The notes under the pieces: generated by a model
The model's input: only the letters and a program-made list of their open reading frames with translations
What the model was told of the DNA's origin: nothing
The model's database searches: none
Program-made: the position numbers and the translations under genes
Assembly: GCA_942493095.1 (NCBI GenBank)
Contig: OW818675.1
Span: 1,320,001 to 1,352,000, forward strand
DNA: 32,000 nt
Direction: 5' to 3'
Source of the DNA: Candidatus Electronema halotolerans
GTDB lineage: Bacteria; Desulfobacterota; Desulfobulbia; Desulfobulbales; Desulfobulbaceae
Part shown: positions 1,239-25,189 of the stretch, piece by piece
Layout: each line of letters begins with the position of its first letter
Numbering within the stretch: the first letter of the stretch is position 1

Positions 1239-2747
1239 TTGACAAAATCAACAGGTAAAGATTATGCTGCCGTTATGAATTTCAGTGTTCCTAGTGAAAA
1301 AGAAGTCCGTGCTGCATACGCAGAAGGCGAAGAAGCGGTCGTCGCCCTGTTTAGCAGTATAACTGCGCAGGTTGAAAACCTCGCCGCTCAGTCAGCCAAG
1401 CAGTCCGAGATATTGAAGGATTTGCAGGCCCGGCTGTCGAAAAACAGTCGGAACAGCGGGAAACCGCCTTCGAGCGATGGATACGGTAAAGCGAAGCGAA
1501 CGGAAAGTCTGAGAGAGTCCGGCAGGAAGCCGAACGGCGGCCAGCCAGGTCATCAAGGGCATACTCTTGAGCGGTCTGCGGCACCGGATTCTACGGAGAG
1601 GTATAAACCCGAGGAATGCGCGGCTTGCAAAATGTCGCTTGCGGATGTCGTCGCTGTCGGAGAGGAGGAACGGCAGGTTTATGATATTCCGGCGATTCGG
1701 ATTGAAGTGACCTCGCATCGAGCGGAAATAAAAATCTGTCCCGGCTGCGGCACGGAAAACAGAGGCAAATTCCCGGAAAACGTCGGACAGGGCATCCGTT
1801 ACGGCACGGGGGTGAAAACTTGGGCGGCATATTTCGCGAACCAGCATCATATTCCGCTTGAACGGGCTGCGCAGATTATCGAAGACCTGACCGGGCATTC
1901 CGTCTCCGAGGGTTCGCTGCTGAAGGCATCGGAAGAGCTTTGCGGATGCGTGCGTCCTTCAACGGAAGCAGTCGAAAAACTGCTCATGAATACCGATGTG
2001 TTACATGCCGATGAAAGCGGAGTCCGCGTGAAAGGGAAGCTGCACTGGCTGCATGTCGCTTCGACGAACTGCCTCACCCATTATTCGGTGCATGAAAAAC
2101 GGGGAAAAGAGGCGATGGACGCAGCGGGAATCCTTGGAAAGTTCACAGGAACAGCGACGCATGATCATTGGAAATCGTACTTCAGCTATGAAAACTGCGG
2201 TCATGCGCTGTGCAATGCGCATCATCTCCGGGAACTCAAGTTCATAGAAAAACAGTATGGACAAGTTTGGGCCGGCGAGATGGCCGAGCTGTTGCTTGAA
2301 ATAAAAGGCGCGGCTGAAAAGCTGAAGCCGGATCGGGACGGCTTCGCGCCGGAGAAGATCGAAGAATTTGAGCGGCGGTATGATGAAATCGTCCGACGGG
2401 GTTTTGCCGACAATCCGTTCACTCCGCCTAAGGAGAAAAAACGAGGACGGGCGAAGAAGACTCCGCCGCTCAATTTGCTGACACGGATGCGTGATTACAG
2501 GGCGGAGACCCTCGCATTCATGTATGATTTCCGGGTTCCGTTCGACAACAACGCGGCGGAAAGAGATGTGCGGATGATCAAGGTCAAGCAGAAGGTTTCC
2601 GGCTGCTTCCGAACACTTGAGGGAGCAGAACGATTCGCCTGTATCCGGGGATATATCTCCACGGTCCGTAAAAATTCAAGAAACATTTTTGAAGCGATCA
2701 AAGATGCTTTCCTTGGAAGTCCTTTTATCCCCGATGCCGCAGTATAA
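1239..2747 (+). CDS. IS66 family transposase (TnpC-type)
   Basis: Motifs characteristic of IS66 transposases: GKPPSSDG, CPGCG zinc-finger, LHADESG, LHWLHV, HDHWKSY, CNAHHLREL, DNNAAERDVRMIKVKQKVSGCFRT. The track start at 1239 is TTG; the first ATG is at 1275. Confidence 0.92.
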   Translation: MTKSTGKDYAAVMNFSVPSEKEVRAAYAEGEEAVVALFSSITAQVENLAAQSAKQSEILKDLQARLSKNSRNSGKPPSSDGYGKAKRTESLRESGRKPNGGQPGHQGHTLERSAAPDSTERYKPEECAACKMSLADVVAVGEEERQVYDIPAIRIEVTSHRAEIKICPGCGTENRGKFPENVGQGIRYGTGVKTWAAYFANQHHIPLERAAQIIEDLTGHSVSEGSLLKASEELCGCVRPSTEAVEKLLMNTDVLHADESGVRVKGKLHWLHVASTNCLTHYSVHEKRGKEAMDAAGILGKFTGTATHDHWKSYFSYENCGHALCNAHHLRELKFIEKQYGQVWAGEMAELLLEIKGAAEKLKPDRDGFAPEKIEEFERRYDEIVRRGFADNPFTPPKEKKRGRAKKTPPLNLLTRMRDYRAETLAFMYDFRVPFDNNAAERDVRMIKVKQKVSGCFRTLEGAERFACIRGYISTVRKNSRNIFEAIKDAFLGSPFIPDAAV

Positions 2748-6320: not shown

Positions 6321-6601
6321 TTTGCTCCTCCCTTTTTTTGCATTGAAACGGTGCTGAAAACACCAGAAAAAAGAAGGCTGAAAACAGCAGAACAGCAGAA
6401 CATGCGCAGGCATGTCAGTCTGCCATCCGTTGCTGCAACGCAATATTCAGCTTCTCATTTAAGAATAGCGGAGGGAACGGCAGAAGTGAAGGTGAAAACA
6501 GAAGACGTGCCGCGCACAATCAGTGGGGCAGGTGGGAATGTCTGGGCCTTCAGGCCCCTTTTCCAGCAGTTGACAAAGATGGAGCCTTGCGCTCCGCCTT
6601 C

Positions 6602-6815
6602 TTATTCTTTGACCACAGTCACGGTTTCCGCCTTGCCCCGCGCCCGGTACTCAGGCCGGTACATAGTCTCAACCTCTGAGGGCGGCAGGGCGTAGCTGCC
6701 TAGTGTGACCGCCAAGCTGGGCCTTTGCCAAGGGCGGGTCGATCTTGTCAAAGCGGGTTAACGGGCATCCTCATGCCGGGCTTGGCCAGCACCCAGTGCG
6801 CGTAAGCCAGCATTA
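6602..6815 (-). pseudogene. decayed, internally deleted remnant of an alpha-2-macroglobulin paralogue (3' end)
   Basis: 6602..6712 aligns by eye (~85-bp core with 6 mismatches) to the last ~110 nt of the intact A2M gene (15569..15680). The minus-strand reading is ...ALPPSEVETMYRPEYRARGKAETVTVVKE* versus ...ALPPSEVEAMYRPEYRARGKAGIVTVDKK*. 6713..6815 aligns with indels to 16603..16728. About 0.9 kb of intervening gene and everything upstream are missing. Confidence 0.75.
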
Positions 6816-6892
6816 CATCTCAAGTCCTTCTTTCTCAATGCTCTTTCTGGCAGAAGCAATTGCCTGTCTTAAAACAGAATACAAGAAACAGT

Positions 6893-8125
6893 TCAATCGT
6901 CTGCTGCATCAGCCAAGGCAAAGGAAATGCAGTCCTCCTGATGCAGGCGGGCGATCAGCTCCAGTCCCTGTTCACCGAACCTGTCCCGCAGCTCGGCCAA
7001 GGTGCTTTGCCCGTCCAAAGCATCCAGCACCGGCTTGGCAGTGAAATCAACTGGCACCGACCAATTATAGCGCATGACCAGATAGCCGAAGGATTCCTCT
7101 CTGAGGCGGAACTCGGCAACAGGCCGCCACGTTGGATCAAGCTGGATTGCTGGCGCATTCTCCTGAATCGGCCCGGTCATCAGCGGATCCTGCCCAAGAC
7201 CCAGTTCCAAGGCGAATGAGCGGTCGCCGCCCCGGCAGCGGGAAACAGCCGGGCATTGCAGGCAGGCCGGAGCAATGTGCTGGCGGTACTGCTGCGCCTG
7301 TTCAGACTGCCAGATTTCCGTGATGGGCTGCTCGAAGATGTTGCCGAACACCGTGCCGGTCAGGTTGTCCGGGCGGACAAGTCCTTGTGGCGAGATGGCG
7401 CAGTGTTCGATTCCGGCATTGGAACCCTCAGTGGAATTGGGGACAAAGCATTTGGGCACACAGTTGCCAATTCGGCAGGCCGTGCCCTCAGTGTGCAGCC
7501 GCTCAATCAGCAGCACCGCCTCCCGGAATTGCTCCACAGCAGGCTGGAGGGGATGCGCACCAGTGAGGAAACGGTTGAACACCGCATACCCGGCCCCCAG
7601 CTCCTGCGAGAGCCGGATAATCTCCTCAATCTGCGGACAGCTCTCTCGCGTCAGCACCGTGTTGGTGAAAACCTCAATGCCTGCCTCGGCAGCGCGCCGG
7701 ATATTGGCGCAGGTCTGGGCAAAGGCATCTGCATTGACCAAGGCGTTATGGGCCGCAGCAGTGCTTCCGTGCAGGCTGATGAGCAGGCCCAGACTGTTTT
7801 TCAAGCTGCGGCAGGTGGTAATGACAGCAGCAGGCACAGGCCAGCGGCCATTGCTGAACAGGACATGCGGAATGCCGAGCGTGTCAATATAGGAAATAAT
7901 TTGATGAAATTTCGGGTGCAGGGTGGGTTCGCCGCCGGTCAGACGGATCAGTTCAGCGTATTTTCTGGGATTTTCCGGCGGGGCGATGCGGTCGAAGAGG
8001 TCGCGCCAGTTGGTCAGGGTCTGCTGACGCTGCTGGCCCCAGACATTGGCGCAGCCTGAGCAGAAGTTGTTGCAGGCGTAGGTGAGTTCAACAGCATAAG
8101 AGAGCGGGGCTGAGGGGAAGAGCAT
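6893..8125 (-). CDS. radical SAM / SPASM-twitch domain peptide maturase with C-terminal PqqD-like (RRE) domain
   Basis: CNNFCSGC (Cx3Cx2C) at aa 18-25 and GGEPTLHP. Cys-rich auxiliary-cluster region CRIGNCVPKCF...CAISPQGLVRPDN...CLQCPAVSRC. The last ~90 aa (FGYLVMRYNWSVPVDFTAKPVLDALDGQSTLAELRDRFGEQGLELIARLHQ) resemble PqqD/RiPP recognition elements. Confidence 0.85.
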   Translation of the reverse strand: MLFPSAPLSYAVELTYACNNFCSGCANVWGQQRQQTLTNWRDLFDRIAPPENPRKYAELIRLTGGEPTLHPKFHQIISYIDTLGIPHVLFSNGRWPVPAAVITTCRSLKNSLGLLISLHGSTAAAHNALVNADAFAQTCANIRRAAEAGIEVFTNTVLTRESCPQIEEIIRLSQELGAGYAVFNRFLTGAHPLQPAVEQFREAVLLIERLHTEGTACRIGNCVPKCFVPNSTEGSNAGIEHCAISPQGLVRPDNLTGTVFGNIFEQPITEIWQSEQAQQYRQHIAPACLQCPAVSRCRGGDRSFALELGLGQDPLMTGPIQENAPAIQLDPTWRPVAEFRLREESFGYLVMRYNWSVPVDFTAKPVLDALDGQSTLAELRDRFGEQGLELIARLHQEDCISFALADAADD

Positions 8126-8128
8126 GAA

Positions 8129-8287
8129 TCAATTGCTGCCCAGCGCATAGAGGCCCTTTTTTCTCTTCTGCGCTTTCAAGACCGAGCGGTCGGCGGTTTT
8201 GCTCAGGACAACACGCACCGGGCAAGGAGCCGTCTGAGCAGCACCGTAATAGTCATGCAGGCAGCTTGCAGGCTTTGTCTTTTTCAT
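8129..8287 (-). CDS. small peptide B (52 aa), candidate RiPP precursor
   Basis: Hand translation: MKKTKPASCLHDYYGAAQTAPCPVRVVLSKTADRSVLKAQKRKKGLYALGSN*. The stop lies 3 nt before the radical SAM ATG. It is paralogous to peptide A (shared MK, YY, V[LV]L[ST], basic tract, [FY]ALGS[HN] end). The shared Ala and Leu codons differ synonymously (gcg/gcc, ctg/ttg). Too short for the ORF track. The SD is weak and distant (GGGAG 16 nt upstream). Confidence 0.5.
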   Translation of the reverse strand: MKKTKPASCLHDYYGAAQTAPCPVRVVLSKTADRSVLKAQKRKKGLYALGSN

Positions 8288-8311
8288 GCGGATCACTTCT
8301 CTGCTCCCGTA

Positions 8312-8482
8312 TCAGTGGCTGCCCAAGGCGAAGATATTTTTTCGATCTTTGCCGGATGCGTTTTTCTGTGCAGGCGCGTCACCATTGCTGGTCAGAAGAA
8401 CTTTTGTCCGGGACTGCTGGCGTTCCGGCAGGTCGTAATAGGACAGAGAAAATTGCGGCGGTGTTGTGGTATTATTTTTCAT
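8312..8482 (-). CDS. small peptide A (56 aa), candidate RiPP precursor
   Basis: Hand translation: MKNNTTTPPQFSLSYYDLPERQQSRTKVLLTSNGDAPAQKNASGKDRKNIFALGSH*. Its ATG overlaps the stop of the upstream 1463-aa gene (ATGAAAAATAA, 8472-8482). Paralogous to peptide B. Not in the ORF track. Confidence 0.5.
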   Translation of the reverse strand: MKNNTTTPPQFSLSYYDLPERQQSRTKVLLTSNGDAPAQKNASGKDRKNIFALGSH

Positions 8483-11400
8483 GTTGCAAGATCAAGCTCC
8501 TCAGGCGGATGAGCTGGAGGATGCTGTCGAGTTCTTCTTTTTTCTTCTGCAAGTGCTCACCATCCTGCCAGAGATGGCGGAAAATATCATGCAGAATGTC
8601 AAGAGATTCGCTGTCAGGGATCATTTCTATTCTGCGGCGCAGAACCCGCAGACCTGCTTCAAAGCTCAGGGAGTTATAGCCCGCCTTATAATTGCAGGCT
8701 TCAATATATTTTCGGAACATCTGCACAAGGTCTTTGCGTTCAACTGTTCTTCGTTCTCTGAATTTATACGAGGAAGAATCGTCGTCATTGCCAAATTTTT
8801 CCTCCATGCAGTAGCATTGACTGAAGAGAATATCTCCTTGAGTGATGCGGAACCGGGCGGCAACCCAATGATATTTATATCCCTCAACACTTATTTTCCC
8901 TTCTAACTTCTGCTCATACTTCTTAAAGTCATCTCTGTAATCATCTTTATCATATAGTCCAGAAAAATAAAGTGCATTCAAATAGCTTTGTTTTGCATCA
9001 TCAAGACGAAAATCTTTTCCACTTCTTTTGGATGTTTCAATACATTTTTTCAGGTAATCAAATGCCTCGGGAAATTTTTCCTGCATAATCATTAGTTCAC
9101 CTAGCTGAAAATAGACTTCAGGAAGTTTTTCGTGAATAATATTTTTTTCGGCACTATACTCTTCCAAGTTACCTTTTCCTGTTTTAAAAAAACGATACGC
9201 TTTTTCGAGATCACCTTGAAATTGTTTTTCAAATTTGTTTCGAGCTGCTTCCAGCTCATCAGCGACACTGTCCTCCAGCAGATTGATAAATTCACCTCGC
9301 CGGATATAATATTCACCCTCAATAATATCTGTCTGACCAGACAGTCCTTTTTTCAACCACGGGCTGGACATTTTTTCTATGAGTTTCCGAGCACGCTCAA
9401 ACGCCTGTCTCGCGTGGTGAAAATCTCCCATAAGACGATAGAGACGGCTCTGGCGATTCAACAGCAGGACAAGCTGCTCCAGATACTTTTCTTTATCCTC
9501 AGAATTTCCTGTGAAATGGAATTGTATCCAATAAAGTTCAGTCAGGCATTTATTCACCAGCACTCCTTTCCAATATGCTCCTGTATCCTCGCTTTCTTTA
9601 AGCTCCTCTTCAAGCTTTTTCAGTTCCTTAGGCTGAATTGCTTCTTGTTCCAGCAAACGGGCATATTCGAATATCCAGCTAAAATCCTTTATCTTACTTT
9701 TCCCTCTTGATTTTATTTCTTCCAAATTATCAAGCGTAAATGAAAAAGGCAGTTTCTCGCTCTGCTTTTTCTTGTATTGATCATTCGTAAGAGATGACAG
9801 AGGGGGATAATCACGCCGATTCGTCAGCCTGACTAAGCTTCTTAGGCGATTATAGATGACCAGCAGCATGAGATAATATTCATCTTGATTGAACTTCTTC
9901 TTCAAATTTGCTGCTTCAATATAACTGTCAAATGCTTCTTGCAACTGTTTAATGCCTGATGAAAAGTTACCTGACTTTAAAACCTCAACAGCTTCGTCAA
10001 ACTCCATATCACCAAGAATCAATTTATAACGACCAAATAAGTCAGGGAATTTTTTTAAATCAGGATGTTTTTTTATTTTATCTTTATATTCATTCCACTT
10101 TTTTATATTTTTCTTCTTCCGGTCTAATGGTAGATCATCTTCAGAGTAATTTCCAAAATAATATAAAACAAGAATACTTTCGAGGGTATCAAGAACACGA
10201 TATGAAAAATTAACTTTTTTCGCAGAACGTAAAGCCTTATGGAATTTCATTATGGCAGATTTCCATTCGTTTTGGATGTGTTTTACAGACATCATCATAT
10301 ACAACTCACCCAAGCTGAAACAGGCATCTGCTAATTCCTTGTAAAAAGCTGGTTTCTCCTCAAGACGATCTATAGCTTTTTTTGCATGGTCGATATAGTC
10401 ATCTATCCGCTCTCTATCAGACTGCTCCACGGGTTCCAGCTCCTTTGCCCGGTAATACTCAAGCAGATGGACAAATTCCCTATCGCCATAAAATAGCTGG
10501 CAGAAATTACTGTACACTCGGCCACCTAAAAGCCGGTCCGGTATTTTTTGATAGATTTTTTTCGCTTCTTCAAGATAATGACGAGCATCTATGTTGCGCC
10601 CGGCAATGACTAAAACATGCCCTAACGTATTCAAAGAACGAAATATTTCTTTTCTATTTCTTGGAAGATTCTGCACAATGCTGTATGCTGTTTCCGCATA
10701 TCGTATCGCTTGAAAAAATTTTCCTGTATAACGATAGAGTATGGCGAGATTGCCGAGCGCATATTGGATACACTGCTGCATATTTCGTTCTGTTCTCCTG
10801 TCTGCTCTCTGGCTCTGTGCTTTTTCCAGCCAATCCAGAAGTCCTTCCAAGGTTCTCTGCATCCATTGTTCTGCTTCAACAAAGTCGGCTTTTCTATATA
10901 AAGTGTATCCGATCCAGTTATTGGCAAGAAACAAATGAAAGAGAGAATCTTTATCATCATAATTAAAAAATATTTCACTGGACTCCTTTAAGAGATTGAT
11001 AGCGTCATTAAATTTTCCTGACTCAGAATAGGCAATTCCCTCCCACAGTTTAAATTTTCCGTAGAGTATAGAAAGTTCCTCTGAGCTGTCAGTAACCTGC
11101 TGTTTTTGTGCTGAATCTATTATACTCAACGCCCTTGAAAGATTCCTTTTATGGCCGTGGATATAATACTGCACCTCTCTTAAATTGAGTTCAAGTTCCC
11201 TGGGCAAAGACACGTCATATTCTGCGCAGTAACGTTCCGTTTCGCGTCCCAAAAGACCGGCGTAGGATGAGCGTCCGTCTTCCATTGCAGTGTCAAATTC
11301 TTCACAGAATCGCTGTACGCCTTGATCTGGATTTACCATAAAGGTATATTCAATCATCTCAGGCATATATACTTCACGCTTTTTTTGAGAGACATTCTTC

Positions 11401-12863
11401 GGAGAAAAATTATTATTGTAATAATCAACTAATTGCTCGGCAATTTCTGCGTGTTGCCCTGCAAGGTCTTCCCAATGCTTTTCAATCAGCTCGCGCATTT
11501 CATCGTGCAGCAGAATAATAATATCATCGTTTGCCTTGCCGGAAGGCTTGTATTTTATAAAAGAGAGCGGTCGCAGGACGTTCAAAATTTCCTGACATTC
11601 TTCCCGTGAATATTCAGTTAAATATTGCATGATATTCAAGGTCATCCTGCGATAACCGACAGCCATCCGGTAAACGAATATTCTCTCCCGATAATCGTAT
11701 TCAATCCGTCGCACAAGTGAACGCTCGAATGCTTCCTTCTGCAATTCTTCTTTAGTGAACTGCTGAATTTCTTTCAGCAGTTCAGCCGGTTCTCGCTTGC
11801 CGAAGCTGAACCAATCCATAAACAGTGCCAAGAGTATTGGACGGCGGCCTGCCAACTCAAATATTTGCTGTAGTTCCTCAGTATTCAAGCCCAGCGCGTC
11901 GAGCAGTTCCTCCTTATTATTGACAATTTTTTTATCCTCTAGCAATTGCCAAACATCTTCCCCCAACTCCTGCCGGTCATCATCAGAAATTTCAAACATC
12001 CATATACCGACCCGTCCGTCGGGCAAAGCGTATAGAACCGGCTTTAACAAATGTTTGGCCTGTGAATAATTTAGGAAACGCTCATATTCCAGCGGGGAAA
12101 ATGCAGCAATTTGCAGGCATTCAACGAGAAACTTTTCAGCCTCTTCATCAGAAAATAGCGAAAGATTTTTTTCTGTAACATACTCTTTTGCAGCATCAGT
12201 AAGGGGAAAGCGACCTGAAACAACAAGCCGTGTGTTGCCGGAATGCAAGAGCGGAAAAAAATCTTGTTCCAGCCAGAGGGACAACTCTATTGATTCAACT
12301 TTCTTTTTTTCTTTGTCATCATGCCGAATTACACCAATGCGCTGAATAACCTCGTAAGTGTCAAAAAATAAAACGATTATTTTATCGTTCTGTTCTTTCT
12401 CCTCAGCAACTTTCCTATACTCTTCCTGAAAAGCATCTACTATGCGAGGAAGCAAATATTCAGGCTCGCTGGTATCCTTTGTCTGATGGTATTCTTCAAG
12501 CAACTTCGTTGTTTTTAAAAAAGATGCGCTGCCAAGAATATTGATAATCTGAGTTATAATCCCGTTTCTTGAACGGCTTTCTGTCTGATAAAAGTCAATC
12601 AGCTCACCGGTTATAACCTTTTCCCTGTGCTGAGTGCGGCATTGCTTCAGCATTTGCCGCAGAAGTTGTGTTTTGCCAACGCCTCCGTCGCCATCCGTAT
12701 GAATATTCAGAATAAAAGAGTTTCGATGAGAAAGAAATTCCTCAAACTGCTTCAACTCATTCTGTCGACCAACAAATATAGATGACTTTACTGAAGGCAG
12801 GTCTTTATCTTGTCGCTGCAAATCATTAGGAGTCATACTGTTGCCTCTTTCTTTTTTATTCAT
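8472..12863 (-). CDS. STAND-type P-loop NTPase with extensive TPR repeat array
   Basis: Walker A GDGGVGKTQL and Walker B IIVLFFDTYE in the N-terminal ~300 aa. The remaining >1000 aa contain many 34-aa TPR-like repeats (A/Y/L-rich helical pairs, e.g. ALGNLAILYRYTGKFFQAIRYAETAYSI). The start overlaps the stop of the upstream gene by 8 nt. Confidence 0.85.
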   Translation of the reverse strand: MNKKERGNSMTPNDLQRQDKDLPSVKSSIFVGRQNELKQFEEFLSHRNSFILNIHTDGDGGVGKTQLLRQMLKQCRTQHREKVITGELIDFYQTESRSRNGIITQIINILGSASFLKTTKLLEEYHQTKDTSEPEYLLPRIVDAFQEEYRKVAEEKEQNDKIIVLFFDTYEVIQRIGVIRHDDKEKKKVESIELSLWLEQDFFPLLHSGNTRLVVSGRFPLTDAAKEYVTEKNLSLFSDEEAEKFLVECLQIAAFSPLEYERFLNYSQAKHLLKPVLYALPDGRVGIWMFEISDDDRQELGEDVWQLLEDKKIVNNKEELLDALGLNTEELQQIFELAGRRPILLALFMDWFSFGKREPAELLKEIQQFTKEELQKEAFERSLVRRIEYDYRERIFVYRMAVGYRRMTLNIMQYLTEYSREECQEILNVLRPLSFIKYKPSGKANDDIIILLHDEMRELIEKHWEDLAGQHAEIAEQLVDYYNNNFSPKNVSQKKREVYMPEMIEYTFMVNPDQGVQRFCEEFDTAMEDGRSSYAGLLGRETERYCAEYDVSLPRELELNLREVQYYIHGHKRNLSRALSIIDSAQKQQVTDSSEELSILYGKFKLWEGIAYSESGKFNDAINLLKESSEIFFNYDDKDSLFHLFLANNWIGYTLYRKADFVEAEQWMQRTLEGLLDWLEKAQSQRADRRTERNMQQCIQYALGNLAILYRYTGKFFQAIRYAETAYSIVQNLPRNRKEIFRSLNTLGHVLVIAGRNIDARHYLEEAKKIYQKIPDRLLGGRVYSNFCQLFYGDREFVHLLEYYRAKELEPVEQSDRERIDDYIDHAKKAIDRLEEKPAFYKELADACFSLGELYMMMSVKHIQNEWKSAIMKFHKALRSAKKVNFSYRVLDTLESILVLYYFGNYSEDDLPLDRKKKNIKKWNEYKDKIKKHPDLKKFPDLFGRYKLILGDMEFDEAVEVLKSGNFSSGIKQLQEAFDSYIEAANLKKKFNQDEYYLMLLVIYNRLRSLVRLTNRRDYPPLSSLTNDQYKKKQSEKLPFSFTLDNLEEIKSRGKSKIKDFSWIFEYARLLEQEAIQPKELKKLEEELKESEDTGAYWKGVLVNKCLTELYWIQFHFTGNSEDKEKYLEQLVLLLNRQSRLYRLMGDFHHARQAFERARKLIEKMSSPWLKKGLSGQTDIIEGEYYIRRGEFINLLEDSVADELEAARNKFEKQFQGDLEKAYRFFKTGKGNLEEYSAEKNIIHEKLPEVYFQLGELMIMQEKFPEAFDYLKKCIETSKRSGKDFRLDDAKQSYLNALYFSGLYDKDDYRDDFKKYEQKLEGKISVEGYKYHWVAARFRITQGDILFSQCYCMEEKFGNDDDSSSYKFRERRTVERKDLVQMFRKYIEACNYKAGYNSLSFEAGLRVLRRRIEMIPDSESLDILHDIFRHLWQDGEHLQKKKEELDSILQLIRLRSLILQHEK

Positions 12864-14904
12864 CCAAGTACTTTAACAATTCTGACATATCAAGCATGTC
12901 GTTTATTTTTTTGTCATTACGTAACGCATTCACTAAATTAAAAAAATTTTCTTTAACCAGTGGATAAGTCGAGTATTTATTCAATATTATTTCAATTTCT
13001 TGGGCTGCATCTTTCCCTTCAGCTTTTGCTAAAAAAATCGTATGGTAAAATCGTTCTAAAACATTTTTTATCAGATCTAAATATCCTTCACTATCTTTTA
13101 CCCAAATATCGTACTTTTCAACTAAAACTTTTTGTATTTTTATGAAGTCATTTTTTTTATTTACCATGAAATGACGAATAAAAATATTATGGACTCTATC
13201 TTCTACGTTAAGGCATCCAAGATACATATTGACAAATATGTCTGTCTTTTTTTGAAACTCATTAATAATTTTTTCAAAATAAGTAATTTTTTTATTTTTA
13301 AAATTATCTTGGAAAGAATGGGAAAGAATAACTTTTAACACACCAGGTTCAATATATCGAAGCAAAGACAGATAAGGAAGGATTGTTTCTACTGACGGAG
13401 CATCTTGATCTAATTCAATTTTTCCAATTCTCTCTTTAAACACCTTGTCAATTAATATTTGAAGACAATCCTTGCAAAATTCTTCCTCATTTTTATTTTC
13501 AAATGGCAATGGACATCTAAATATATTGATAAAAACACAAAGGCATTCTTTAATAAGAGAAGGATAGCCTAAAGTTAGTTGATAAATTCTTTTCGAAATT
13601 CTTTCTTTATTCTTGCTATCAAATGACAACCTGTTGTAATCCAAGAAAAATTGAACAAGTTTTTTAATATCCTTTTCATTTAAACAATTTAACTGATTAT
13701 ATTCAATATTTTTTCTTATATTTTCATTTCTCCAATGTCTTTTTTTTTGGCCAGCAAAAACAAGAATAAAATTTTCTTTATGGAGCAAGGGTGCGAATAG
13801 TTGATCCTCCAGTTCATGAATTATATATTGGTCAGCATAATCAATATTGTCAAAACATATAACTATTTTACATGACAACGGGAGTTCGTTGAGACAATCT
13901 TTAAAAGATTCAATTAAGTAACTTTCATCATTCTCTCCTTCATTCTGTTTATATTTTTTTATTTCTTTCTTAAAGGAATCGAAGAAAATTCGATTTTCTT
14001 CCTTTTTGGTGAGAGAAAAGGCTATTTTTTCCAACACAGGATAAACATTGTAAGAAGAACGAGACAGTTCATACCCTTTAAAATCTATGTAACCGATCAA
14101 ATATCTTTCTTTTTCGACTGAAACTATGTAAAGAAAATACTGCAAAAGCCACGTTTTTCCAATTCCTTCATTTCCTGTGTATTCAAAAAGACATGTCTTT
14201 GATTTATATTCAGCAATAATATTGATTAAAGATATTTTTTCCTTCTCTCTATCAACAAACAAGTATAATAATTCTGAATCACAACAAGATGGCATTTCCT
14301 TTTTCTTTACAATTTTATATAATCCGTCCCAATGCTCCGCAACCCGATACAGCGGCATTGCCAATACTGTATCACGCTCTGCATTTTTTACTTTGTCGGG
14401 GTCAGTTGCTTGGGTCTGGATGGCAACTGCTGCTTGGAGATCAACACTAACAACAGCACTTCCACTATATCCTCCTTCACCTGTCTGCTTACTGTCAAGT
14501 TTCAAAAGATAGTCTTTGTTACAGTTGTAAACACCAATAAATGGGCCTTTTCCAGATGACATCTCGACAAGACTTTTGCCATAACCATAAAGTAAAAACT
14601 CCCCTTGTACGAATTTTGGAAGTTGTATATCGAGAGGATAACGATCTTCAATTTCAGTTTCTAACTGAAGTACTGCAAAATCAATCCTCTTTTCCTCATC
14701 ATATTTCCATGCAATTTTACGTGCTGTAAGGGAATGAGTATCTCCTGAAAATTTCACTTCAACAGTTTCAGGTGGGTTTGATTTTCCCAGCACATGACCA
14801 GCTGTAAGCAGATGTCCTCTATTGCTGATCAACCAAGCCGTGCCCTTGATTTTTTGCTCAATCAAAACGGCACAAGTCGCCTGCATAATTTTTTCATCGC
14901 GCAT
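12856..14904 (-). CDS. trypsin-like serine protease domain fused to P-loop (STAND/AAA-type) NTPase
   Basis: N-terminal catalytic triad context: LLTAGHVL (His), IDFAVLQL (Asp), GEGGYSGSAVV (Ser). Then Walker A GNEGIGKTWLL and Walker B KIVICFDNIDYAD, followed by an all-helical C-terminal region. Very AT-rich coding sequence. Confidence 0.85.
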   Translation of the reverse strand: MRDEKIMQATCAVLIEQKIKGTAWLISNRGHLLTAGHVLGKSNPPETVEVKFSGDTHSLTARKIAWKYDEEKRIDFAVLQLETEIEDRYPLDIQLPKFVQGEFLLYGYGKSLVEMSSGKGPFIGVYNCNKDYLLKLDSKQTGEGGYSGSAVVSVDLQAAVAIQTQATDPDKVKNAERDTVLAMPLYRVAEHWDGLYKIVKKKEMPSCCDSELLYLFVDREKEKISLINIIAEYKSKTCLFEYTGNEGIGKTWLLQYFLYIVSVEKERYLIGYIDFKGYELSRSSYNVYPVLEKIAFSLTKKEENRIFFDSFKKEIKKYKQNEGENDESYLIESFKDCLNELPLSCKIVICFDNIDYADQYIIHELEDQLFAPLLHKENFILVFAGQKKRHWRNENIRKNIEYNQLNCLNEKDIKKLVQFFLDYNRLSFDSKNKERISKRIYQLTLGYPSLIKECLCVFINIFRCPLPFENKNEEEFCKDCLQILIDKVFKERIGKIELDQDAPSVETILPYLSLLRYIEPGVLKVILSHSFQDNFKNKKITYFEKIINEFQKKTDIFVNMYLGCLNVEDRVHNIFIRHFMVNKKNDFIKIQKVLVEKYDIWVKDSEGYLDLIKNVLERFYHTIFLAKAEGKDAAQEIEIILNKYSTYPLVKENFFNLVNALRNDKKINDMLDMSELLKYLDE

Positions 14905-14925
14905 AATTCAAAATCCAGCAAGTTA

Positions 14926-15270
14926 TCACTCACCATCACCCTGCCAAGTCAACTTAACTTTTAACCCGGAATCCGCTTTTGCACCAAAAACAACCCACGC
15001 TTTAGCTTCAGCAGAAAATCCCATTGAAAATTCTACCTCCATTTGCTGCGCATGAGCTGTTTTGCGGATACTGTCAAATTCCTGCCCTAAATCCTCCGCA
15101 ATATTTTTAATCGCAGCTTTTGCTTTTCTATATACATCCTTGATGTCATCTTCAATGCCTGTATTGACAAGAGCAGGCCCATCGTTTTCGGAATTGAGCA
15201 CCTCTACCTCGTTATCCATTGCTTGAATCAGCACCTGCGTATTTCCGATGGTTTCCTGTATAGCCTTCAT
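14926..15270 (-). CDS. small Trypco2-like (trypsin-co-occurring domain) protein
   Basis: 114 aa from MKAIQETIG, with GGGAGG 8 nt upstream (the track ORF starts 9 codons earlier). The C-terminal beta-rich segment MEVEFSMGFSAEAKAWVVFGAKADSGLKVKLTWQG resembles, from memory, the small proteins found next to trypsin-STAND genes (Trypco domains of Kaur, Burroughs, Iyer and Aravind 2020). It sits 21 nt upstream of the protease gene. Confidence 0.55.
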   Translation of the reverse strand: MKAIQETIGNTQVLIQAMDNEVEVLNSENDGPALVNTGIEDDIKDVYRKAKAAIKNIAEDLGQEFDSIRKTAHAQQMEVEFSMGFSAEAKAWVVFGAKADSGLKVKLTWQGDGE

Positions 15271-15516
15271 AATCAAGCCTCCCTTGGTTTGTCTCAAAAA
15301 AACACATTAACCCAAACTGTTACGCTGCTCCCATGCAACTGCCTGCGAATTATCCAAACTACCACACAACCAGCAATCCTTCAATCACTTTCTCGCTCAG
15401 TGCTGTTACAACCTGTTTCCCAAACACGGCAAGTCAGTTTCTTTCCGCTCAACATGAATCTGCTGCTGAAGCGGCAAATATCCCGCTTTTCAGCCAGCGG
15501 GCCGGAAGAGTGGCAC

Positions 15517-15561
15517 CCCCTTCGGTGCTGCTGAATTACGAAATCAGCAGCACCGAAGGGG
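15517..15561 (-). terminator. 18-bp perfect stem-loop immediately downstream of the A2M stop (no U-tract)
   Basis: CCCCTTCGGTGCTGCTGA (15517-15534), 9-nt loop, TCAGCAGCACCGAAGGGG (15544-15561), 7 nt from the A2M stop codon. It lacks a T-run on the minus strand, so intrinsic-terminator function is uncertain. Confidence 0.45.
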
Positions 15562-15568
15562 CAGAACC

Positions 15569-18500
15569 TCATTTCTTGTCAACAGTTACAATCCCTGCCT
15601 TGCCCCGCGCCCGGTACTCAGGACGGTACATAGCCTCAACCTCTGACGGCGGCAGGGCATAGCTGCCTGGCGTGACCGCCCGCACCAAATAGGCAAAGCT
15701 GAAGGGCCGCACTGGATTGTTGCGTGTCAAGGGCTTGAGCTGCTCTGTGTCAAAGGCAACCACAAAGCGGTCGTCCCGCGCATCCGTGTAGCGGAAGGAA
15801 CTGAGTTCGGGCAGCCAGTCAAAGGCCTCGGCATCTTTGCCGCTCACCGCCTTTTCGATTTCAAAGCCCGCAGGCAGCAGATCAATCAGCAGGGCGTGAT
15901 AATTGCCGCCCTCTTTGGCCTCGCCTTCAACCAGCACCACAGCCAGCTCGCTTTGCGGCACCTTGTCCAAGGCCAGCGGCTCGCCTGCACTGCTGTACCA
16001 AGTCCGTTGGATTGTGAAGCCATTTTCCATTGGCGGCGGCTCGTTGGTCGGCGCGCCCTGCACGGTGAGCACTGCCCAGACTGCGACCTGTCCCTTGTTG
16101 CGCAAGGTCACGGGCTGATCAAGCAACGTGTCTCCGCTGCGGCTGAGGGAGAAGAAAGAGGATTCTTTTTTCTCTGTTACCGCTGGAGCAGCTTCCTCTT
16201 TTGGCGTGTCACTCCCCAAATTCATGGCGGAAAGAAAACGGCCCAAAAGCGAAGGACTCTCCGCCTCTGGTTTATTCTCCTGCGGTGCCGGGCTGGCCTC
16301 GGTGATTTCCAAATCCAAGGGCTGGCCCTTGTCCAAGGTCAGAGCGGCCATGATCAGAGCGGCCTGCTCCTGAGTGGAGAAATACTTGCGCTTGGAAAGT
16401 TGGCCGGTCAGTTCCTGCCACGCCGAAGCCGGATCAACCTGCGTCAGGCCGGTCTCGTCGAGCACACTGATGATTGCAGCCAGATCACGCAGGCGGGAGC
16501 CGTAGCTCCACCATGAGGCAGCCTCTGTGTCTGCCGAGCGCAGAGCTGCTTGCAAGCCTTTCATTGCCCGTTCCTGATCGCCAAGCAAAGCCAAGGTGCC
16601 AGCAAGCTGGGCTTGCGCCAGCGGCGAGCTAATTTTGTCAAAGCGGGTGTCAAAGAGATAGCGGGCATCCTCATGCCGAGCTTGGCCAGCACGGGCCAGC
16701 ACCCAATGCGCGTAGGCCAGTGCCTCAAGATGTTTGTCCTTCCTGTCGCTGTGCTTGACCTCGTCTGTCAGCCAGTCCAAACCTTTTTTGTAGAAATAGT
16801 CTGGCACGGCAAAGCCTTTTTCCCGCGCTCGGCCAAGAAAGTCCATAGCATAAGCCGAAAGCCACGGCTCTTCGTCATCGCTGTCTGACCAGAGACCAAA
16901 GCTGCCCTCGCCGCGCTGCTTCTGCAAAATCAGGTCAATAGCCGCCTGCACCCGGTCAGGCAGATTTTTGTCCGCTGGATAGGCAAAGCGTTCGGCAAGC
17001 TGATTGGCGTAGAGCAGAGGCATGGCCCGGCTGGTGAGCTGCTCCAAGCAGCCGTGCGGGTAGCGGTCCAGCTCGCCGAGTAGCCCGGCCACATCAACAT
17101 TGGGCGCGCTGGAAATGCTGAGATCAACCTTGGCTGTGGCCGGATGCAGACCACTCAGGGTCTCCTTGTTCAGGGTGAGGACTGCGCCCGGCTCAATTTT
17201 GCTGTAGGTGCGGGTTAAGGTCGGCAGATATTTGCCGCGCACATTGAGATCAAAGTCGCCTGCATAACTGTAGCCTTGCGGGCCGTTGACGAGCAGATGC
17301 AGCTTGCCGCTGCCAATGCCGGAAGCAGTCACTGGAAAGCTGAGGCTCTGCCGCCTGCCCTGCTCAAGCTGGACAACTGCCGCGCTTTGCTCCGGGCCAA
17401 GCAGCGTTACCGCGCCTTCAGCCCGCCATGATGCCTGATACTGACCTGCCGGGCCGTCAATGTTTTCGATCAACACCTGAATGCTGGACTGGTCGCCGTC
17501 TGCCAGATAGCGCGGCAGAGACGGGGAGATGACCACTGGATCATTGACCCGCATGGCTTGACTGGCCGCGCCGGTCTTTTCCTTTGACCAGGCCACGGCC
17601 ATCAGGCGCAGCTTACCGTTAAAGTCCGGGATGTCTAACGGCACCGTGACTGTGCCGTCATCGCCTGCCCTGACCACGCCGGAGAAGAGGGAAACCACCT
17701 TCACATTGGACTGCGGCGCACCGCGCAGACCATCTTCGCCAGCACCGCTGCGCAGAGTGAGCGGCTTGCTGTTTGGCGGAATGATGAGCTGGCCGTACAT
17801 GTCGCGGATGTCAAGACCGAGCTGCTGCTTGCCAAAGAACCAGTCAATCGGATTTGGCGAGACAAACTGGGTCAGCTGCAAAACTCCTTCATCCACAGCG
17901 GCCAAGGTCAGATGGATTTCGCTGCCTGCCTCTGCCCCCTTGACTGCAACCGGCACTGGCAAGACCTGCCGGGGCCGGGTCTGCTCCGGCGCATTGACGG
18001 TCAGTTCCAACCGCTGCGGAGCCGGATCAACTGGCAGCCAGATCAGGCCCACAGCCCGGTCTGCGCCCTTCTGCTGCCCCTTGCCGGGCCGATAGACCGT
18101 GACCAAGGCATAGACACCCGCGCCCCAGCCGTCCTCAACCGGAATCTCAATGGTCTGCTCCTTGCCGCTCAAGGCGAAGTTGCGCAGCCCGTTCACTGTG
18201 GTGTTGGCCAAGACCAGACTGGCTTGCCCCGGATACGGCGAGGTCAAGGTCAGTTTGGCAATGTCGCCGACCTTGTAACTCTGCCGGTCAAGCACCACTT
18301 TGACCGAATCCGGGGTGTCGCTCTCGCCGACAAGTTGCTCGCCCGCAGTGAAGTGCAGGCTGGTGAGCAGGATATTGTCCTTGTTCAACAGCTCCAGCCG
18401 GTATCTGCCCCAGTCCGTCGCAACGGCCAGCGGCACTGGCCCGGCCTTATCCCAAGCAAGCTGGCCGCGCTGCGCCTCCTGATCAAGAACGATCTCCTCA

Positions 18501-21126: not shown

Positions 21127-22710
21127 CTATTTCCGCCAGCGACTGACCGCCAGCTCCAGTTTTTGAAGAAAAACTTTCAGCTCAGGAGAAGCATTGAGCT
21201 GGAGCAGCTTGCGTACAACCAAACGCAAAAAGTCTTCCTCTTGATATTGAAACTCGCGGGCCAAGTCATACATCATATTTTTATAGATGTTGCCGGGCTT
21301 GTCCGCAGCATTGCTGTATGCCTGCTGAATTTTTTGCATTGTGGTTACAATCAGCTCACCCGCCTCGCTGCGTTCCATAAGTTCGCCGACTTGCTGCTTG
21401 TTTGCTTCCAGAGCTTTCCAGAGAAATGGTTCCGGGCCAGATTCACCGGGGAGAAAAAGCGGCTCAATCAGAAACCCGCCGAATTCCTTTGCCTCCGCCC
21501 GCAGCGTCCCGTCTAAATTACGGGCATCGCCATCCAAGACAAAAAGAGTGCTGTCCAACTGCCCAACTTTGCCGAAGGCGCGGACATGTTCGGCAAACTG
21601 ATTTTTCCCAGTATCAGTTCCAATCAATATATCGTTGGTATGCAAGCCAAGTTTTGGCATCAGCACATCCATGCAGCCATGCAGCACGGCTTTGGCTTCC
21701 GAGTCCTCACAAATAATGCTGAGTTTGTTCAATGCCTGACCGTACAGCACACGTTGCAGCACATCTTGATAGGCAGGCTTGAGCACAACATTCCGATAAT
21801 CACTGCTGCGCTCCAAAAAAATGCGGGCCTCTCTGGGAACAGATTCCAGCACTGCCGGACTGTGGGATGTGACCACGATCTGCAAATCGTTGCGCAAGGC
21901 CAGCCGTTGCAGCTCAAGCATGAGCTGCTGCTGCGTGTAAGGATGCAGGCCAGCCTCCACTTCGTCAATCAGCACCAAGGTGTTTTGAAGATTCGAGAGC
22001 TGCATGGAAAGCCGCAAGATAGTCCGCTCGCCTGATGACATGTGAAACTCGGAATAGCGTCCGCTGGCATCCGACCGTTCCGCCACCAGCAGGTCGCGTC
22101 CTCCAGAAATTATTTTGTTCATCCGCACATATTTAAAAGGCAGCACATTTTGGGCAAAGGCTATCAGGTCTGCGGTCACCTCCTGAATTTTTTCATATCT
22201 GGCACCTATGTTCAATACACTCCGCACTTCGCCGGGATTGGAGAGATTGGCCAATGTGCGCACAATCACTTCGCGTTGAGGCTGACGGACTCCCTTTTTC
22301 CCCTGAAAATTTGGATTCCATCCCTTTGTCAGCCGCCGCCAAGTCATTGGCAGCGGTCCCGAAGGAGTGTTGAACAGGTAGCTGATTTCAGCTTTAGTTA
22401 TTTGGTCGTCCAAGTCTTCCCCGCCATCTGTCCTCCTGTTTCTGAAGTTGGGAAAAAGCGTGGCAGGCTTAAAATCACGCAACCCGGAACCGGGCACATC
22501 ATACGCGCAGGCCAAAGCCATCAGCACGGTCGTCTTGCCACAGGCATTTGGTCCTGCCAAGACAGCAACCGGATAATTGAACTCAATGATCAAGTCTTCA
22601 ATACCGCGCAAATTTTTAATCCGAACCTGCCGGAGCATATCCTGCTGCGGATTTCTTTTTCCTCTCAACTGATCCCAAATCTGCTCTAAATTACGCTGCA
22701 AGGAAGACAT
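21127..22710 (-). CDS. OLD-family / PARIS-like ABC-type ATPase fused to a Toprim-like nuclease domain
   Basis: Walker A AGPNACGKTT, ABC signature-like MSSGERTILRL, Walker B LVLIDEVEAGLHP, and a His-loop region VTSHSP. The C-terminal region has Toprim-like acidic motifs: IICEDSEAK (Glu) and LFVLDGDARN (DxD). Confidence 0.65.
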   Translation of the reverse strand: MSSLQRNLEQIWDQLRGKRNPQQDMLRQVRIKNLRGIEDLIIEFNYPVAVLAGPNACGKTTVLMALACAYDVPGSGLRDFKPATLFPNFRNRRTDGGEDLDDQITKAEISYLFNTPSGPLPMTWRRLTKGWNPNFQGKKGVRQPQREVIVRTLANLSNPGEVRSVLNIGARYEKIQEVTADLIAFAQNVLPFKYVRMNKIISGGRDLLVAERSDASGRYSEFHMSSGERTILRLSMQLSNLQNTLVLIDEVEAGLHPYTQQQLMLELQRLALRNDLQIVVTSHSPAVLESVPREARIFLERSSDYRNVVLKPAYQDVLQRVLYGQALNKLSIICEDSEAKAVLHGCMDVLMPKLGLHTNDILIGTDTGKNQFAEHVRAFGKVGQLDSTLFVLDGDARNLDGTLRAEAKEFGGFLIEPLFLPGESGPEPFLWKALEANKQQVGELMERSEAGELIVTTMQKIQQAYSNAADKPGNIYKNMMYDLAREFQYQEEDFLRLVVRKLLQLNASPELKVFLQKLELAVSRWRK

Positions 22711-23311: not shown

Positions 23312-25189
23312 ATGGCATCACGTGATTTAGAGATTATCAAGAAAATAGAAAAAGAACTGAATCAGAATCTGCGCAGAGTTGATAAACTTGGATCAAAACG
23401 CTTCTGTTATATTGCTGATGAGCAGGATCAAGTCACCGTCCTGCGGTTAAGTGAAGCTGGTCTCGCCAATTCTAATATATATTTTCATCTCTTTAAAGAG
23501 CTTACTAATCTTAAAACATTCGATCTAAGCTTTAATCAAATCAATGATATTTCCTTTCTCAAAGACATGAGCTATCTTCAGACGCTCAATTTAAGTCTCA
23601 ATCAGATCAGTGATGTCTCCTCTCTGAAAGAACTCTATCATCTTAAAACTCTTAATTTAAGTTCAAATCAAATTAGCGATATTTCATTTCTCAAAGATAT
23701 TGTCCATCTTCAGTGGCTAAATTTAAGTTTTAATAAGATCAAAGATATTTCATTTCTCAAAAATCTTATCCAACTTCAGACACTCAATTTATGGAATAAT
23801 CAGATCATCCGCTTGCCGGAATGGATTACAGAGTTGTTCCCTGAGATTGTCTGTTCTGATTATTTTGAAGTTTACAAAATCAACGTCGGTAATAATCCCC
23901 TGACCCATCCGCCGCCAGAAATCATCAACCAAGGCCGCGAAGCCATCCGCGCCTATTTCCGCTCCTTTGAAAAAAGCGAAGCTGTCAAATTGCACGAATC
24001 CAAAGTGCTGCTGGTTGGCGACGGCAAGGCCGGAAAAACCTCGCTGCTCAAACAGTTCCAAGGACTGGACTTTGATGAGCATGAATCCCAAACCCACGGC
24101 ATAAATGTCCAGCCGCTTTCAGGCAGTGAGATAGCAGGTTTTGCCAATCCTGACCAAGACTGCCGCCTCCATTTCTGGGATTTCGGCGGGCAGGAAATCA
24201 TGCACGCCTTGCACCGCTTCTTCATGAGCAACCGCTCGCTGTACATCCTTGTCTTGGACAGCCGCGACGACACTGGCAGATGCTGCTGGCGTTGGCTCCG
24301 GCACATTGAGAAGTACGGCGGCCAGTCGCCGCTCATCGTGGCCATGAACAAGATTGATGCCAACCCGTCCTTCAATCTCGAACAGAAGAGCATCAATGTC
24401 CGTTTCTCTCAGATCGAAAACCGCTTCTTCCGCATCTCTTGCAAAAATAAGGACGGCCTGCCGGAATTAGTGCGCAGCATGGCCGCATCTGTGCCGAAAA
24501 CTCCGCTGTACGGCTTTGAAATCAGCAAAGCATGGCTGGAAATCAGGAAACAGCTCGAAGCGGCAACCGGCGCGCAGAACTATATCAGCCAGGAGCAGTT
24601 CATTGCCATCTGCAAAGAACACGGGGTTGAGGACGAGACAAGCCGAATCACCCTCCTCAAGCTGTTCAATGACTTGGGTACCTTGCTCTTTTTCGAGCAG
24701 ATAAAACTGGCTGACATTTATGTCCTTGATCCGCACTGGGTGACGGTCGGGGTCTATAAAATCATCAACTCAGCCCGAACCAAGGACGGAATCCTGCACG
24801 AGGAGGATTTGGATTTCATCCTCAAGCAGGAGGATATCCGCTGCGATGAATATGACCCGGCCAAAGAGAAATGCTTTACCTACACCGTCCAAGAGCAGGC
24901 ATATCTTGTCCGCATCATGGAGGAGTTTGAGCTGTGCTACCGCTATGACAAGCATCAGCATATTCTGCCCAATCAGCTTCCCAAGGAGCCGGAACAGGAA
25001 CCAAAGCTGACAGGTGAACATCTGCTCGGCTTTGTCATGGAATATGACTATCTGCCTTCTTCGTTCTTTTCCCGCCTCATGGTCCGCTTGAAGGAAGATA
25101 TTCCAGACCGGCGGCGGCAGTGGCGGTACGGGATGTATCTCGAAAACAAGCAATTCGGCGTGGAAGCAATTATAGCGGTTTCGTATTGA
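23312..25189 (+). pseudogene. Roco-family protein (LRR - Roc GTPase - COR), 5' part, interrupted by IS630 element at 25172/25173
   Basis: Six to seven ~22-aa LRRs (LxxLNLSxNQIsDISFLKxL). Roc G-domain motifs: G1 GDGKAGKTS, G3 WDFGGQE, G4 NKID. COR-like region follows. The reading frame runs into the IS and stops after 6 IS-derived codons. Confidence 0.85.

Follow-up and report, generated by a model that had tools for sequence, protein, structure and literature searches.

STAND/NLR receptors have a central place in the immunity of bacteria, plants and animals, and on/off control is known for few of them. Kaur, Burroughs, Iyer and Aravind (2020, eLife, PMC7159879) described conflict systems in which an FxSxx peptide and a radical S-adenosylmethionine (rSAM) enzyme with a SPASM domain are obligatorily linked to an AP-ATPase with tetratricopeptide repeats (TPRs). 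Evans et al. (bioRxiv 10.1101/2025.11.14.688446) characterised Pepco, comprising Trypco1 and Trypco2, as a pore-forming toxin that is cleaved by a neighbouring sensor-fused trypsin-like protease, whereby removal of the tail turns a pre-formed barrel into a lethal pore. In this study, we analysed a stretch of 32,000 nucleotides from the cable bacterium Candidatus Electronema halotolerans (OW818675.1, positions 1,320,001-1,352,000; hereafter the window), with emphasis on a minus-strand operon at 6893-15270 that carries a Trypco1/protease pair, a STAND protein with TPRs, two precursor peptides and an rSAM/SPASM maturase. Coordinates refer to the window, and homologous loci are labelled L001-L098. 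The six genes very probably constitute one unit of a widespread family of STAND-NTPase systems for conflict, that is, immunity or programmed cell death.

The ORF (open reading frame) table, the translations and the direct reading of the junctions agree that six successive genes occupy the minus strand, as an earlier reading made from the letters of the window (the sequence-only reading) had described. From the upstream end, they encode Trypco1, that is, Pepco (14926-15270, 114 aa, ATG at 15270); a trypsin-like serine protease fused to an NTPase designated NTPase-1 (12856-14904, 682 aa); a P-loop NTPase whose C-terminal region is a long array of TPRs, designated STAND-TPR (8472-12863, 1463 aa); precursor peptide A (8312-8482, 56 aa, C-terminus ...KDRKNIFALGSH-COOH); precursor peptide B (8129-8287, 52 aa, C-terminus ...KRKKGLYALGSN-COOH); and the rSAM/SPASM maturase (6893-8125, 410 aa). 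The successive spacings are +21, -8, -11, +24 and +3 nt, identical to those reported earlier, and no terminator-like site was found between the six genes on the scanned minus strand. All six are packed tightly into a single unit.

The locus shares several features with the actinobacterial Fxs systems, both stand-alone and VMAP-ternary. These are a short precursor that carries a conserved motif at its extreme C-terminus, an rSAM-SPASM enzyme, a linked AP-ATPase/STAND protein with C-terminal TPRs (here the product of 8472-12863), TIR effectors in some relatives and a bias to multicellular bacteria. Unlike the Fxs precursors, however, the window peptides end in [FY]ALGS[HN] and not in FxSxx. The maturase lies outside the FxsB family and has a likely C-terminal RRE (recognition element of RiPPs, peptides made on the ribosome and modified after translation), two NTPases are present, and the hosts found here are Desulfobulbaceae, Chloroflexi and others. 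The FxsB model was absent among the 25 best NCBIfam matches of the maturase, and no NCBIfam equivalog reached its cut-off for this protein (best 73 bits versus 500). A zincin-like metallopeptidase, which is a feature of Fxs systems, was found neither among the six genes nor in the rest of the inserted island described below, and Pfam scans of the operon genes and the large flanking ORFs detected no MoxR or vWA domains, which are features of VMAP systems. The principle of linking an rSAM-modified peptide to a STAND-TPR protein is already known, and the present family differs, failing most of the defining Fxs features. The view of the sequence-only reading that the coupling had no described precedent cannot be kept, given the FxSxx/rSAM-SPASM/AP-ATPase-TPR systems of Kaur et al. 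2020 (PMC7159879) and the weak matches to the NCBIfam models "FxSxx-COOH system TPR protein" and "HaaT".

The window also joins the peptide module to a Trypco-trypsin module; for the VMAP systems, these two modules are called mutually exclusive in a figure legend of Kaur et al. (PMC7159879). Beyond that paper, no prior description of an rSAM enzyme together with STAND proteins was found in the literature covered, which was incomplete, and two recent surveys of STAND/protease effectors that mention Trypco make no mention of rSAM or RiPP coupling. As in the Pepco modules on STAND sensors such as Avs4, the small Trypco gene lies just upstream of the gene for a trypsin-like protease, whose triad is intact and which is fused to a P-loop sensor ATPase. 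The characterised Pepco example, on the other hand, consists of two genes that sense phage portal protein, without a second STAND-TPR protein, peptides or an rSAM enzyme.

The recurrence of this arrangement was assessed in a genomic-context sample of about twenty loci, which is not a census, and most of the relatives are metagenome-assembled. The rSAM homologues numbered 399 at E ≤ 1e-20; those with names were mostly Candidatus Electrothrix, plus Desulfobacterales and Cloacimonetes, and a genome scan added relatives from UASB270, many Anaerolineae, one Gemmatimonadaceae and one Cytophagia. Where the upstream sequence was long enough, nearly all loci have a STAND-TPR homologue as the immediate upstream neighbour of the rSAM gene, with a short ORF between the two in most; these loci belong to cable bacteria and to members of the Desulfobacterales, Cloacimonetes, Anaerolineae and Cytophagia. 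When the phmmer comparison is included, such immediate adjacency was found in at least 14 loci. The STAND-TPR gene is usually preceded by that of a second NTPase of ~505 aa, which is homologous to residues 213-682 of the window protease-NTPase. Co-occurrence of the rSAM-peptide pair with STAND-TPR in many genomes, and repeatedly with Trypco/trypsin, bears out the association with STAND and trypsin genes that the sequence-only reading had proposed.

The order STAND-TPR, peptide and rSAM is combined with varying effectors in L001, L002, L005, L007, L010, L015, L035, L083-L085 and L096-L098. L002 (E. aestuarii) carries Trypco2 and a 386-aa protein, and its first NTPase is an NB-ARC domain fused to STAND-TPR; in L098, Trypco1 is accompanied by trypsin and NTPase-1 as two separate genes. 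The effector is TIR in L085 and L035 and CHAT in L007, and EAD1-, EAD7- and EAD8-NTPases are found in L015, L010 and L097, respectively. The same six-gene operon as in the window is present in L086/L087, one metagenomic locus in two assemblies, where the setting differs (prmC upstream and a FAD-binding protein downstream). The invariant core of the family is NTPase-1, STAND-TPR, one to three peptides and an rSAM/SPASM enzyme with a C-terminal RRE-like domain, and the effector is exchangeable. In bacterium UASB270 (L004:15491-18508), the region 5-8 kb downstream of rSAM holds another NTPase-1 homologue, TPR ORFs in fragments and an ORF of 58 aa that ends in HKKNIFMLESHG; this region may represent a copy of the system that has decayed or been rearranged.

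The peptides of the window end in IFALGSH and LYALGSN, with F/Y at position -6 and S at position -2. Paired peptides ending in KNIFALGSH and KGLYALGSN characterise the cable-bacterium clade (the window, L001, L002, L003, L086 and L098), in which orthologues of A and B hold the same position, and single related peptides are present in L084, L085, L083, L097 and L005. The single peptides of more distant relatives end in VFALTSH, LFALESH, VFALSSSG, LYALDSNT and SILKSH. Cys-rich cores (DSECEV, DCACT, DCACE, CNCACK and QDCAACN) replace [FY]ALGS[HN] in the Chloroflexi and Gemmatimonadaceae relatives (L006, L008-L013 and L016), and these likely reflect a different cross-link chemistry within the same type of system. 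Most cores hold [FY]-A-L (aromatic-X-X), the exceptions being L005 (SILKSH) and the Cys-rich Chloroflexi cores. No triceptide-type model was among the 25 best NCBIfam matches of the maturase, and none reached its cut-off.

The peptides of the cable-bacterium, Desulfobacterales and related loci share the motif [LF]S[FY]Y ... K[VI]xL in the leader and a di- or tribasic site directly before the core. Peptide A overlaps the STAND-TPR stop codon with its start by 11 nt in the window, and a peptide start overlaps that stop in all five loci checked (the window, L001, L084, L085 and L086). Peptide B starts at an ATG, and its longest ORF begins with GTG at 8296. Precursor-like ORFs, orthologues and paralogues together, occupy the same position upstream of the rSAM gene in more than 10 loci. 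Compared with L086, peptide A is 96% identical with a synonymous divergence (dS) of only 0.05, and peptide B is 92% identical. Neither peptide matched anything in the NCBIfam scan, and peptide A gave two matches only in the protein database because such short ORFs are rarely called. Judged from position and conserved motifs, the two peptides are most likely the substrates of the maturase.

The rSAM/SPASM assignment made from the sequence holds, with Radical_SAM at 46.3 bits and SPASM at 35.5 bits, both above the Pfam cut-offs. The CX3CX2C cluster motif (C18, C22 and C25; 8051-8074, minus strand) is invariant in 85 homologues, as are C288, C291 and C297 of the SPASM auxiliary-cluster region (residues 239-297; 7235-7411, minus strand). 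Comparison with L086 gave a nonsynonymous divergence (dN) of 0.03 and a dS of 0.52, indicating strong purifying selection. The AlphaFold2 (AF2) model of the enzyme has a pLDDT (predicted confidence) of 93.9, and its best neighbours in the PDB are SuiB, SkfB, PqqE and anSME. Like SuiB/streptide, SkfB and PqqE, which have the closest solved folds, the enzyme combines CX3CX2C and SPASM with a PqqD-like element, predicted in this case, and stands beside its precursor; unlike them, it carries its likely RRE at the C-terminus, and the identity is only 15-21%. The RRE is N-terminal in SuiB and is a separate protein (PqqD) for PqqE. The PADLOC search of the rSAM protein returned generic viperin-type matches only.

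A C-terminal RRE in this enzyme is likely on the evidence of structure prediction. Residues 334-403 (6917-7126, minus strand) are conserved across the family and modelled by AF2 as four strands followed by helices, two in the full model and three when the domain was modelled alone (pLDDT 79.6). The top Foldseek matches of this region in the PDB were almost all RREs, namely PbtF (8t19), TruD, PqqD (5sxy), ThcOx, McbB, LynD and lasso B1, with TM scores of 0.55-0.67 (8t19 0.65/0.67; also 4bs9 and 6jx3) and weak E-values of 0.02-0.3. A profile of the C-terminal domain gave nothing significant for PqqD/RRE against the PDB and Pfam (PqqD 5sxy, E 0.36). Regarding the earlier proposal of a maturase with its own recognition element, the resemblance of the predicted fold to RREs speaks for it, whereas PqqD went undetected at the sequence level.

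Two-gene modules were observed in the JGI metagenome loci L088-L090 (for example, L088:7643-10073), in which Trypco1 adjoins a Trypsin_2-Radical_SAM-SPASM fusion (P0155, P0156, P0161 and P0187). The rSAM domain occupies the usual sensor position of Pepco-linked proteases in these fusions and is 25% identical to the window enzyme. Such an arrangement would fit an rSAM enzyme that acts on Trypco1 or a STAND protein, or that serves as a redox or peptide sensor, instead of acting on the small ORFs. We regard this as quite improbable for the window: the fused domains are only that distantly identical to the maturase, the window family has the RRE-like domain, and most loci have, immediately upstream of rSAM, precursor-like ORFs in which leader and core are conserved. 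Separately, RelA/SpoT-domain genes were seen directly downstream of the rSAM gene in L084 (11301-12428) and L085 (11249-12337 and 15376-16467), and they may link the system to alarmone signalling.

The small protein at the head of the operon belongs to Trypco1 (Pfam PF19493, E 4e-12, 47 bits versus a cut-off of 24.6), with zero match to Trypco2, the label given to it by the sequence-only reading; it also matches the NCBIfam family CU044_2847 above the cut-off and is 83% identical to the Trypco1 of L086. Its ATG at 15270 is preceded by the ribosome-binding site AAGGGAGG, and the longest ORF begins with TTG at 15297. The neighbouring protein was correctly assigned to the trypsins from its translation: Trypsin_2 matches at E 4e-8, above the Pfam gathering score. 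Its protease part (residues 1-200; 14305-14904) has the triad H37, D75 and S147, which is kept in 97-100% of 68 homologues. The NTPase-1 part (residues 213-682; 12859-14268) carries Walker A GNEGIGKT at 14152-14175, and its homologues in L084, L085, L083, L005 and L098 are free-standing proteins of ~505 aa. Two properties of a Pepco/Trypco module are present in the window: the Trypco1 gene lies 21 nt upstream of the Trypsin_2 gene, and the protease with its intact predicted triad is fused to a P-loop NTPase as the sensor part. The homology to the Pepco pair of Evans et al. suggests that the protease-NTPase and Trypco1 act together as a death effector. The AVAST type 1 protein Avs1b is also a STAND protein with an N-terminal trypsin-like protease, and the rest of that protein is unrelated; the first 107 positions of its NCBIfam model were weakly matched by ~110 N-terminal residues of the protease-NTPase (29.7 bits versus a cut-off of 1500), and PADLOC gave no AVAST type 1 match for this protein.

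The P-loop and TPR assignments are upheld by TPR_12 (76.9 bits, Pfam) and by clear Walker A and B motifs in both NTPases; the P-loop assignments were made from these motifs and sub-threshold profiles. STAND-TPR carries Walker A GDGGVGKT at 12669-12692, Walker B at 12351-12380 and its best TPR_12 block at 10545-10760. AAA_16 reached 28 bits in this protein, below the Pfam cut-off, and a weak NB-ARC match was also obtained. The C-terminal end is among the better conserved parts of the TPR protein.

The weak partial NCBIfam matches of the STAND-TPR region to FxSxx_TPR (NF040586, 36 bits versus a cut-off of 300), HaaT and AfsR, together with TPR_MalT matches in relatives, raise the question of whether the locus is an ordinary RiPP cluster in which the NTPase-TPR proteins are regulators or biosynthetic scaffolds of the LAL/MalT/AfsR kind or similar to HaaT, the TPR protein of cyclophane clusters. 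This is improbable, since all these NCBIfam matches are far below the cut-offs, the variable partners are hallmark conflict modules (Trypco1/2, trypsin, TIR, CHAT and EAD1/7/8), and the locus is mosaic and mobile. A Pfam scan detected no DNA-binding domain in either NTPase, and the regulator idea (LAL/MalT/AfsR) was rejected on this ground.

A direct repeat encloses the operon. The 3' end of the intact alpha-2-macroglobulin (a2M) gene (15569-15682, minus strand) forms the Trypco-side edge, and a relic copy of it with its own stop codon (...AVTLGSYALPPSEVETMYRPEYRARGKAETVTVVKE*; 6602-6713, minus strand) forms the rSAM-side edge. This direct repeat covers the last 36 codons plus the stop; 95 of 114 nt are identical between the copies, and an 84-nt core is 93% identical. 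A separate hairpin follows either copy. The one just 3' of the relic stop codon, GGAGCGCAAGGCTCC with a T-rich tail (6581-6595, minus strand), is probably the original a2M terminator, and a perfect 16-bp inverted repeat without a T-run (15518-15560, minus strand) lies directly 3' of the intact a2M stop codon. The interval between the copies (about 6714-15568, ~8.9 kb) holds the six genes alone, and the operon is best described, from the repeat structure, as a ~8.9-kb island inserted at the 3' end of a2M. The operon leader and promoter region (15271-15517, minus strand, ~250 nt) lies within it and is kept in L086 to about 15405. Rfam and tRNA scans of the window found nothing, and the island is therefore not tRNA-associated. 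A search of metagenome contigs for an empty site, with the a2M C-terminus as query, returned only 56-57% relatives without the flanks of the window. Among the other loci, flanking repeats were found in L005 only (Ca. Electrothrix laxa), in which a 173-nt direct repeat, 90% identical, flanks the system at 2057-2229 and 11578-11750; the gene carrying it is not a recombinase. A 45-nt stretch upstream of the operon (15461-15505) is 89% identical to L086:9984-10028, downstream of the rSAM gene; this displaced stretch could reflect a circular intermediate or a common repeat element.

The composition step that the sequence-only reading placed inside the TPR gene is real, with a GC content of 0.48-0.59 up to ~8700 and 0.31-0.45 beyond; GC at third codon positions (GC3) drops from 0.70 for rSAM to 0.40 for STAND-TPR and 0.26 for the protease-NTPase gene. 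So sharp a step within one gene could speak for an AT-rich foreign STAND/trypsin block that came by chance to lie beside a resident rSAM-peptide cluster, the alternative raised in that reading. However, the same step, with an AT-rich STAND half and a GC-rich rSAM half, is found in L001, L002 and L005 and is thus a property of the family and not a recent accident in the window. The a2M-derived repeats enclose the rSAM and peptide genes along with the STAND genes, so both halves arrived together, and the same neighbours recur across phyla. The shared insertion and the recurring step lead us to reject chance juxtaposition, the least probable of all the explanations considered here and one we regard as extremely improbable.

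Exchange within the locus is also visible. The protease-NTPase is 42% identical to its counterpart in L086 (1706-3739), compared with 78-96% for the other proteins of the operon, including 78% for STAND-TPR and 92% for rSAM. Its dS is 1.3 versus 0.05-0.6 in the other genes (0.4-0.6 for its neighbours), which points to replacement of this gene within the operon, presumably by recombination, rather than to fast evolution alone. Nucleotide identity between the window and L001 falls from 83% to 66-68% within the TPR gene, near 9050-9380. In sum, this is a mosaic, mobile locus.

These results are best explained, in our moderately confident view, by one functional unit of a STAND conflict family with a peptide ligand, a protease and a pore. 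In the proposed mechanism, the RRE would bind the conserved leader (with its motifs [LF]S[FY]Y and K[VI]xL), and the rSAM enzyme would cross-link the last 6-8 residues ([IL][FY]AL[G/x]S[HN]-COOH); the core may first be freed at the conserved dibasic site just upstream. The modified C-terminus would be kept intracellular and bound by STAND-TPR as a dedicated ligand or licensing factor. An infection-linked change, sensed by variable parts of the two NTPases or acting via peptide supply, would then cause NTPase oligomerisation, and the protease would cleave Trypco1/Pepco, leading to a membrane pore and cell death; spread would be limited in the filament.

An intracellular ligand role of the peptide is favoured by several observations. 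The peptide and rSAM genes are invariant while the effectors swap, and they are the most conserved, non-diversifying genes of the locus, with strong purifying selection on both, in contrast to NTPases that are mosaic and divergent; translation of the peptide genes is coupled to that of the TPR gene; it is a free C-terminus that makes up the functional part; and no exporter or leader peptidase was found in the island. TPR clamps and RRNPP receptors bind ligands of this free-C-terminus type. We put forward the peptide as the ligand of STAND-TPR only tentatively. A more specific version is more doubtful still: the cross-linked peptide end might be an endogenous ligand, a "second messenger" or licensing factor, that gates an NLR-like STAND-TPR protease-to-pore death pathway in filaments, with loss or change of the short-lived peptide during infection as the trigger.

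The modified peptide might instead be the output of the system, as a toxin or antibiotic or as an alarm or kin signal exported between filament cells. The layout of its short C-terminal core behind a dibasic site is reminiscent of rSAM-modified heptapeptide antibiotics such as darobactin, and many host taxa are filamentous or multicellular, including cable bacteria, Anaerolineae and UASB270. A toxin-or-signal reading of the peptide was given in section 24 of Kaur et al. 2020 (PMC7159879). We consider such an output unlikely in the window, where no exporter, immunity gene or dedicated leader peptidase was found within the repeat-bounded island, separate and exchangeable death effectors (trypsin/Trypco, TIR and CHAT) are already present, and the peptides and rSAM are the most conserved parts and not diversifying ones.

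Several points weigh against the ligand-gated death unit that we prefer. All evidence for the family is computational, and the argument for a peptide-TPR interaction comes solely from gene arrangement and conservation, with the conservation of the TPR C-terminus being modest. The RRE is seen in predicted structure with weak Foldseek E-values, and the P-loop families AAA_22, AAA_16 and NPHP3_N match weakly, under the gathering score, in both NTPases. Neither the STAND genes nor Trypco1 are covered by a PADLOC model, no integrase was found within the island, and STAND-TPR is not directly upstream of rSAM in L004 and L008. The L005 core is without an aromatic residue and the Chloroflexi cores are Cys-rich, which leaves room for another chemistry there and perhaps another role. 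The window Trypco1 is without the long charged C-terminal tail that characterised Pepco loses, and its cleavage site is therefore uncertain.

What the peptide does in the related Fxs systems has been a guess since 2020. The present family ties STAND receptors to a modified peptide as an invariant component across several phyla, whichever effector is used. The six-gene operon is compact, the biochemistry of the effector pair is described and the peptides are nearly identical in several genomes, which makes the question open to reconstitution. If true, the proposal would mean a new kind of chemistry for rSAM RiPPs and also provide an example of a defence island that cable bacteria carry.

Other genes of the window were also recorded. 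Just past the a2M gene, a defence-type gene (21127-22710, minus strand) encodes an ABC/OLD-type ATPase (AAA_21/AAA_15) that matches the PADLOC candidate HEC-04 at E 4e-37, a neighbour that counts in favour of the preferred explanation. An LRR-Roc-COR GTPase (23312-25189, plus strand) lies where the GC content is low and uneven (0.36-0.55), and the large subunit of a ribonucleotide reductase (27904-31464, minus strand) has its barrel domain interrupted by an intein splicing domain. On the other side of the island, an IS66-family transposase is present at 1239-2747 (plus strand). The DUF1664-like gene at 105-1193 is 83% identical in nucleotide sequence to a gene flanking the L001 system, although the two systems sit in different places.

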